This document shows, piece after piece, positions 1 to 3,000 of a stretch of DNA of 10,593 nt; positions within the stretch are counted from its first letter, which is position 1; each line of letters starts with the position of its first letter. A program made the position numbers. This DNA comes from a virus (Duplodnaviria > Heunggongvirae > Uroviricota > Caudoviricetes), in IMG/VR virus record IMGVR_UViG_2698536408_000006; one strand, written 5' to 3'.

Positions 1-3000
1 CTCAGTGATTTCTGCTCGGCGATGCGCTGTATGCCGGTATGGAACGGACAGATGCTGACGTTCGTGCAGGACCGACCGTCGGATAAGGTGTGGACCTATA
101 ACCGCAGTAATGTGGTGATGCCGGACGATGGCGCGCCGTTCCGCTACAGCTTCAGCGCCCTGAAGGACCGCCATAATGCCGTTGAGGTGAACTGGATTGA
201 CCCAGATAACGGCTGGGAGACGGCGACAGAGCTTGTGGAGGATACGCAGGCCATTGTCCGTTACGGTCGTAACGTCACGAAGATGGATGCCTTTGGCTGT
301 ACCAGCCGGGGGCAGGCACACCGAGCCGGGCTGTGGCTGATTAAAACGGAACTGCTGGAAACGCAGACCGTGGACTTCAGCGTGGGCGCAGAAGGGCTTC
401 GCCATGTACCGGGTGATGTCATTGAAATCTGCGATGATGATTATGCCGGTATCAGCACCGGTGGTCGCGTACTGGCGGTGAACAGCCAGACCCGGACGCT
501 GACGCTCGACCGTGAAATCACGCTGCCATCCTCCGGCACCACGCTGATAAGCCTGGTTGACGGGCAGGGGAATCCGGTCAGCGTGGAGGTCCAGTCCGTC
601 ACCGACGGCGTGAAGGTGAAAGTGAGCCGGGTTCCTGACGGCGTTGCAGAATACAGCGTGTGGGGGCTGAAGCTGCCGACGCTGCACCAGCGATTGTTCC
701 GCTGCGTGAGTATCCGTGAGAACGACGACGGCACGTATGCCATCACCGCCGTGCAGCATGTGCCGGAAAAAGAGGCCATCGTGGATAACGGGGCACACTT
801 TGACGGTGACCGGCGCGGCACGGTGAATGGTGTCACGCCGCCAGCGGTGCAGCACCTGACTGCCGAAGTCACCGCAGACAGCGGGGAATATCAGGTGCTG
901 GCGCGATGGGACACGCCGAAGGTGGTGAAGGGTGTGAGCTTCCTGCTTCGCCTGACCGTGGCAGCGGACGACGGCAGTGAGCGGCTGGTCAGCACAGCCA
1001 GGACGACGGAAACCACATACCGCTTCAGGCAGCTGGCGCTGGGGAATTACAGTCTGACAGTCCGGGCGGTAAATGCCCGGGGGCAGCAGGGCGATCCGGC
1101 GTCGGTATCGTTCCGGATTGCGGCACCGGCAGCGCCTGTCACTATTGAACTGATACCGGGGTATTTTCAGATAACGGCGGTCCCGAAACTGGCTGTATAT
1201 GACCCGACGGTGCAGTTTGAGTTCTGGTTTTCGGAAAAGCGGATTGCGGATATCAGGCAGGTTGAAACCAGCGCCCGCTATCTTGGCACGGCGCTGTACT
1301 GGATAGCCGCCAGTATCAATATCAGGCCNNNNNNNNNNNNNNNNNNNNNNNNNNNNNNNNNNNNNNNNNNNNNNNNNNNNNNNNNNNNNNNNNNNNGATT
1401 GCGGATATCAGGCAGGTTGAAACCACAGCACGCTATCTTGGCACGGCGCTGTACTGGATAGCCGCCAGTATCAATATCAGGCCGGGCCATGATTATTATT
1501 TTTACGTTCGCAGTGTGAACACCGTTGGCAAATCGGCATTTGTGGAGGCCATCGGTCGGGCGAGCGATGATGCAGAAGGTTATCTGAATTTTTATAAAGG
1601 GTTGATCAATAAAACGCATCTCGGCAAGGAGTTGTGGACGCAGATTGATAACGGTCAGCTTGCGCCGGACCTGACTGAAATCAGGACGTCCATTACGAAT
1701 GTCAGCAATGAAATCACGCAAACCGTCAATAAAAAACTGGAAAATCAGAGTGCTGCAATCCAGCAGATACAGAAAGTTCAGGTTGATACAAATAATAACC
1801 TGAACAGCATGTGGGCTGTGAAGCTGCAACAGATGAAGGACGGACGCCTTTATATTGCGGGTATCGGTGCCGGTATTGAGAATACGCCAGCAGGAATGCA
1901 GAGTCAGGTGCTGCTGGCGGCAGACAGGATTGCGATGATTAATCCTGCGAATGGCAACACAAAGCCGATGTTTGTTGGTCAGGGCGATCAGATATTCATG
2001 AACGACGTGTTCCTGAAATGCCTGACGGCTCCGACCATTACCAGCGGCGGTAATCCTCCGGCATTTTCCCTGACACCTGGCGGACGGCTGACGGCGAAAA
2101 ATGCCGATATCAGCGGTAACGTGAACGCGAACTCCGGGACGCTCAACAACGTCACGATTAATAAGAACTGTCGGGTTCTGGGAAAATTGTCCGCGAACCA
2201 GATTGAAGGCGATCTCGTTAAAACAGTGGGCAAACCTTTCCCACGGGACTCCCGGGCACCGGAGAGGTGGCCATCAGGGACCATTACCGTCAGGGTTTAT
2301 GACGATCAGCCGTTTGATCGGCAAATTGTTATTCCCGCGGTGGCGTTTCGCGGTGCTAAACATGAGCGGAAGAATAACAATATTTATTCGTCATGCCGCC
2401 TGATAGTGAAGAAAAACGGTGCTGAAATTTATAACCGAACGACCCTGGATAATACGCTGATATATACGGGTGTTATTGATATGCCTGCCGGTCACGGTCA
2501 CATGACGCTGGAGTTTTCTGTATCGGCATGGCTGGTAAATGGCTGGTATCCCACAGCAAGTATCAGCGATTTGCTGGTTGTGGTGATGAAGAAAGCCACT
2601 GCAGGCATCACGATTAGCTGAATTTTATAACCCAGATACGGGCACCAGAAATGGTGCCTTTTTTATTGCAGAAAAGCGAGAGGTAATTATGCGTAAAGTT
2701 TGTGCAGCCATTTTGTCCGCAGCCATTTGCCTGGCCGTATCCGGTGCGCCTGCATGGGCGTCTGAACATCAGTCCACGCTGAGCGCCGGGTATCTTCAGA
2801 CCCATACTGATATGCCAGGCAGCGATGACCTGAAGGGCATTAACGTGAAATACCGTTATGAGTTTACGGACACGCTGGGGCTGATTACGTCATTCAGTTA
2901 TGCCAACGCTGAAGATGAGCAAAAAACGCATTACAGCGATACCCGCTGGCATGAGGATTCCGTGCGTAACCGCTGGTTCAGCGTGATGGCGGGGCCGTCT

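Follow-up and report, generated by a model that had tools for sequence, protein, structure and literature searches.

Among the false duplications described for draft assemblies are 'duplicated overlapping contigs' (Kelley and Salzberg, 2010; PMC2864568), and the behaviour of SOAPdenovo2 on negative scaffold gaps has also been described (PMC5368935). In these published cases neighbouring contigs share terminal sequence and are separated by N despite a negative distance between them, small differences within the overlap blocked the merge, and merging the two ends gives the true sequence. The locus analyzed here would share all of these features. The source of the differences is another matter: two haplotypes in the published vertebrate cases (PMC2864568), but a paralogous gene of another prophage in a haploid bacterium here.

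The gene concerned can be compared with J of phage lambda, the tip attachment (host specificity) protein gpJ, which is also encoded by lambdoid prophages of E. coli and Shigella. It has the same series of gpJ domains, it is followed by lom and then a side tail fibre gene, and homologues of the tail genes L, K and I precede it in finished genomes. Unlike its lambda counterpart it lies in IS-riddled prophage remnants of Shigella sonnei, where an IS21-family element interrupts the adjoining stf gene, but J itself is not unusual.

The window, by which we mean the whole stretch of 10,593 nt that was analyzed, is best described as a short-read draft scaffold of S. sonnei in three pieces (Table 1). 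The organism is fixed by piece 3, since positions 3945..10593 are 100% identical over 6649 nt to the complete chromosome CP023645.1 (L018), and positions 3945..9338 are 100% identical (5394 nt) to CP000038.1, S. sonnei Ss046. The nearest complete Escherichia coli genomes carry ipaH and are 97-99% identical, which suggests that these relatives are enteroinvasive E. coli. Two J genes are represented: J1, which is interrupted by a run of 68 N, and J2, which follows the only other N run in the window, a single N at 3908. We conclude that the 68-N gap with its 87-nt repeat very probably consists of the unmerged overlapping contig ends of one intact J1, i.e., that it is an assembly artefact.

Table 1. 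Features of the window around the two J genes
Feature	Position	Strand	Description
Piece 1	1..1328	+	Internal part of J1; frame 1; window codon 1 is J residue 339 of 1159
Left 87-nt copy	1242..1328	+	Authentic J1 allele AGCGCC at 1270..1275
J1-specific neighbours of the AGCGCC site			TGGTTTTCGG upstream, CAGGCCGGGCCATGATTATTATTTTTACG downstream
N run	1329..1396	.	68 N from the scaffolder, very probably with no real sequence behind them; true gap then -87
Right 87-nt copy, head of piece 2	1397..1483	+	J2-type at 1426, 1427 and 1430; J1-type GG at 1479..1480
Piece 2	1397..3907		3' end of J1, lom, stf N-terminus cut by IS21-family element
Rest of J1 to stop	1484..2621	+	Window frame 3; identical to L005-L014; Ig_J_second, Phage_Tail_Tip and Ig_GpJ_C in the merged translation
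lom1	2689..3288		Downstream of J1
stf N-terminus near J1	3310..3678		122-aa ORF, Pfam phage_tail_N
Piece 3	3909..10593		36-47 nt of inverted IS21 sequence, J2 from mid-gene, lom, stf, tfa
J2	about 3945..5480		Starts mid-gene
Paralogous 87 nt in J2	4238..4324	+	Same as the right copy except for AA in place of GG at 4321..4322; source of ACAGCA
Short lom adjoining J2	5551..6033
stf near J2	6126..9215
tfa	9215..9796

The overlap and the reading frame of J1

The first-pass annotation had reported, with correct coordinates, that the same 87-bp stretch stands on both sides of the gap, and an end-to-end alignment of the two copies agrees, with three mismatches. It had also described a 12-nt patch of differences; the differences are real, but they amount to three substitutions within 5 nt (left/right: 1271 G/C, 1272 C/A and 1275 C/A), so the extent of 12 nt does not stand. 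The substitutions change the codons AGC GCC of the left copy to ACA GCA in the right one, i.e., serine to threonine plus one synonymous change. When piece 1 is compared with piece 2 by BLAST, the 87-nt overlap is the sole similarity between them, and its E value of 6.6e-38 means that the overlap is not due to chance. The match reaches both contig termini exactly, ending at 1328 and starting at 1397.

Removing the gap together with either one of the 87-nt copies leaves frame 1 open for 821 codons, from the first base of the window to the J1 stop codon at collapsed nt 2464-2466 (window 2619..2621). The frame arithmetic proposed earlier was right: 68 + 87 = 155, which is 2 mod 3, so that the pre-gap frame 1 joins the post-gap frame 3. 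The merged translation contains the Pfam gpJ series Phage-tail_3, Ig_J, Ig_J_second, Phage_Tail_Tip and Ig_GpJ_C (E = 1e-31 to 1e-43), with positions 2-104 of 105 of Ig_J_second unbroken across the junction at residues 378-480. Merging restores both the reading frame and the Ig_J_second domain that are interrupted in the scaffold, and in E. coli the locus matching piece 1 is annotated as 'phage attachment tail tip protein J'. As judged from the merged frame, J1 is intact over residues 339-1159, the part that the window shows. The suggestion that this copy of J was probably intact is borne out by the 821-codon ORF and by the uninterrupted 1159-aa gene in finished genomes.

Other contents of the gap site were considered as well. 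An IS insertion hidden in the gap is rejected: the contigs overlap, there are no IS termini at their ends, and finished genomes have nothing there. A minus-strand ORF at 1278..1829 crosses the N run antisense to J and is without support as a gene. An Rfam scan of the whole window gave no match at the gap site.

Comparison with finished genomes

The comparison is based on ten loci (L005-L014) from complete or near-complete chromosomes, chosen by an identical Lom1 protein. All ten have one intact J of 1159 aa directly upstream of lom1; in L005 and L006 the J1 gene lies at 6454..9933. On CP023645.1 piece 1 maps to 7468..8795 of the locus (L006) and piece 2 to 8709..11219, which is an overlap of exactly 87 nt. 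The match coordinates in four complete E. coli genomes (FDAARGOS_943, VL46, VL40 and RMDEC332) give the identical 87-nt overlap. The proposal of a negative gap between two contig ends is thus matched by independent finished genomes, which place no bases between the flanks and have no different sequence there.

We also asked which of the two copies belongs at the junction. With the left copy kept, the merged sequence (collapsed 1..3752) is 99.6% identical to L005 7468..11219, and likewise across the ten finished loci. From collapsed 862 to 2571, which includes the whole junction, it shows zero differences. The 176-nt junction span of this keep-left merge occurs exactly in L001, in L005-L014, in Shigella flexneri (L015) and in E. 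coli (L017), and the corresponding keep-right span is matched exactly in none of the fetched loci. Similarly, every J1 gene of L001 and L005-L014 contains the exact left 87-mer a single time (L009, with its two J1 copies, has two matches), and this count speaks against a real tandem 87-bp duplication inside J. No S. sonnei locus among those fetched contains the exact right 87-mer, and the right variant is present in 0 of the 11 J1 genes of the ten finished loci. The best reconstruction of the true sequence is the window minus 1329..1483, with the left copy kept, and the presumed continuity of J1 in this particular strain rests on its relatives.

The right variant was also looked for more widely. 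Among 5,426 complete E. coli genomes, a set that excludes Shigella and is therefore weakly informative, the right-flank haplotype 1397..1560 has no exact match, and its best full-length match is at 97.6%. The 87-mer in any combination of alleles gives three matches in the GTDB species-representative genomes, two of them with the left variant in the merged context and one, on a draft E. coli contig (L016), with the right variant. In L016 the right 87-mer is exact and is preceded by J2-like upstream sequence, and given this exact occurrence it is possible that the right 87-mer is a natural haplotype.

One of the ten finished loci (L009, CP019689.1 4626665-4647264) has an entire block duplicated in tandem, which extends from the minor tail genes to lom and includes J1. 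About 9.4 kb separates its two J1 copies, each of which has the left 87-mer.

Alleles of two paralogous J genes and the alternatives

The three mismatches between the contig ends can be traced to J2. The first 82 nt of the right copy are those of J2 4238..4319, and from 1431 onward the sequence is that of J1. The identity of J2 4262..4273 (AACCACAGCACG) with the patch in the right copy, pointed out in the first-pass annotation, was found again (right-copy positions 1421..1432). The idea that two J genes had confused the assembler holds in substance, since the mismatches of the right copy are J2 alleles, but the accompanying statement that the contigs come from two near-identical J genes has to be modified: both contigs are J1, J2-type sequence is limited to at most the first 82 nt of piece 2, and the two genes are not near-identical overall, with an identity of about 95% upstream and about 89-90% in the region of the break. 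The patch is flanked by two stretches, of 40 nt (collapsed 1231-1270) and 49 nt (1276-1324), in which J1 and J2 are nevertheless exactly the same, and the contig break falls on them. J2 in the window matches finished S. sonnei genomes at 100% identity.

To type the alleles, the window was aligned with J1 (L005) and J2 (L003), which gives 412 discriminating sites in the compared span. Every one of the 412 is either J1- or J2-type, without a third base; the single score of 'other' comes from a gap at the end of the alignment, beyond the stop. From collapsed 906 to the stop all discriminating sites (368/368) are J1-type, and both contigs therefore belong to J1. Piece 1 has four short J2-type patches (257-273, 528-570, 686-694 and 855-861) with J1-type blocks between them, and the 14 positions in these patches are its only differences from finished J1 genes. 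Two further positions, 2727 and 2730 in lom1, have the lom2 allele, which is the allele shown by both lom copies of the window. All differences from the finished J1-lom loci, 14 in piece 1, three in the head of piece 2 and two in lom1, are alleles of the J2 locus (19/19).

There are six short interleaved patches in all, and at the overlap the same J1 positions are covered twice, with the J1 allele in the left copy and the J2 allele in the right copy. Contig ends that disagree on the same positions of one gene cannot both be right, and at least one end must therefore be a product of the assembly. It follows that the J2-type patch at the overlap, at least, does not reflect one real molecule. More generally, the allele pattern points to paralogue cross-talk in the short-read assembly as the origin of the J2 alleles in the J1-lom locus, and the patchwork of piece 1 and lom1 is likely to reflect the collapse of paralogue bubbles.

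We propose the following course of events. Pieces 1 and 2 would be consecutive parts of a single J1 in a cryptic prophage, and the assembler would have broken this gene where the 40-nt and 49-nt exact runs are common to J2, leaving the ends overlapping by 87 nt. The head of piece 2 presumably followed J2 reads over at most the first 82 nt, which would give the three mismatches. These in turn would have blocked a merge by exact overlap, for which the scaffolder would have substituted a gap that it estimated at 68 N. With an estimate of +68 against a true value of -87, the scaffolder would be off by 155 nt, a plausible error.

Three other explanations have to be weighed, and together they are left with only a small share of the probability. 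The scaffolder may have joined two different J1-like copies, i.e., a third paralogue or a tandem J1 block, one of which truly has ACAGCA; the overlap would in that case, too, be a repeat left unmerged, with the right variant as a real allele. In favour of this are the exact right 87-mer in the E. coli draft L016 and the median of three J-like places in E. coli genomes, and the two tandem J1 copies of CP019689.1 demonstrate that extra J1 copies can occur. However, both of those copies have the left variant, as do all of the other finished J1 genes considered, piece 2 is pure J1 downstream of 1430, and J1 and J2 alleles alone explain all 412 sites, so we regard a second J1-like copy as very unlikely. 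A genuine duplication of 87 nt inside J around 68 unsequenced nt, which would make J1 frameshifted and dead, is the literal reading of the scaffold and has nothing more in its favour. It is absent from every finished relative, its copies lie exactly at contig termini with N alone between them, and merging them restores the frame and the domain exactly; IS elements are not known to make 87-nt target duplications. This explanation is extremely improbable.

Gene conversion from the J2 locus to the J1 locus deserves separate attention, as it would leave the J2-type patches genuine and make the right copy the true J1. Its hallmark, variant bases that equal the alleles of a paralogue in the same genome, is seen at 19 of the 19 differences from finished J1, and conversion would yield this pattern as well as an assembly error would. 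However, six separate short patches would be needed, interleaved with J1 sites, in a clonal species in which the ten finished loci have essentially identical J1 genes. Nor does conversion explain the disagreement of the two contig ends, and the presence of one allele in both lom copies of the window is what is expected of a collapsed bubble. We consider a real conversion of J1, with the right copy as its true sequence, to be highly unlikely, and it is also very improbable that the J2-type patches, including ACAGCA at 1426..1430, are real micro gene-conversion tracts between two cryptic-prophage tail-tip genes. If such tracts did exist, they would mean that ongoing recombination reshuffles receptor-binding tail genes inside a clonal pathogen.

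Unmerged contig ends of one J1 are by far the better explanation. Artefacts account for the gap, the duplication and the seeming frameshift in what is an ordinary gpJ gene, with no new biology. The importance of the feature, which is not biological, is limited to data quality. Whoever reads the scaffold literally will see a frameshifted or split J1 and a false 87-nt duplication, with the risk of a false pseudogene call or of false SNPs in comparative work on Shigella prophages. Alleles from two paralogous tail loci are also mixed in this scaffold, and loci are joined in it that a finished genome separates by about 680 kb. Calls of variants or gene content in this region are therefore not trustworthy without the reads.

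The join at nt 3908 and neighbouring genes

The single N at 3908 lies at the centre of an inverted repeat (3861..3955): the 47 nt before it, a fragment of an IS21-family istA, are the perfect reverse complement of the 47 nt after it. The inverted IS21 piece enters J2 mid-gene via an 11-nt microhomology, CGTCTGACCGT. In CP023645.1 the J1 locus is at about 1.96 Mb and the J2 locus at about 1.27 Mb, and because of this distance of about 680 kb the join of pieces 2 and 3 looks like a chimeric or hairpin artefact combined with a scaffold misjoin. A probable reason for the join is that piece 1 also serves as the 5' part of J2.

The genes around the two J copies show several features of their own. 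The stf near J1 keeps its N-terminal domain only, and the IS21-family element cuts it from about 3654-3664. Finished S. sonnei genomes have the same truncation, and their copy of the IS21 element is often split by another IS. The lom adjoining J2 encodes 160 aa that cover positions 1-159 of 199 of Ail_Lom, i.e., it is truncated at the C-terminus, and Ss046 has the same 160-aa gene. In the tail fibre assembly gene, the window and CP023645.1 (100% match) share a 63-nt in-frame segment (9339..9401) that Ss046 lacks, owing either to a deletion in that strain or to an error in its record. The only Rfam match of the window lies inside the same gene, a full-length match to IS009 at 9558..9756 on the + strand with 218 bits, above the gathering score. 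Finally, a draft contig with an identical stf of 1029 aa (L004, CXFU01000079.1 1..5400), presumably also from S. sonnei, has the stf N-terminal region (about 1.07 kb) three times in head-to-tail order ahead of the gene, possibly another assembly artefact caused by repeats.
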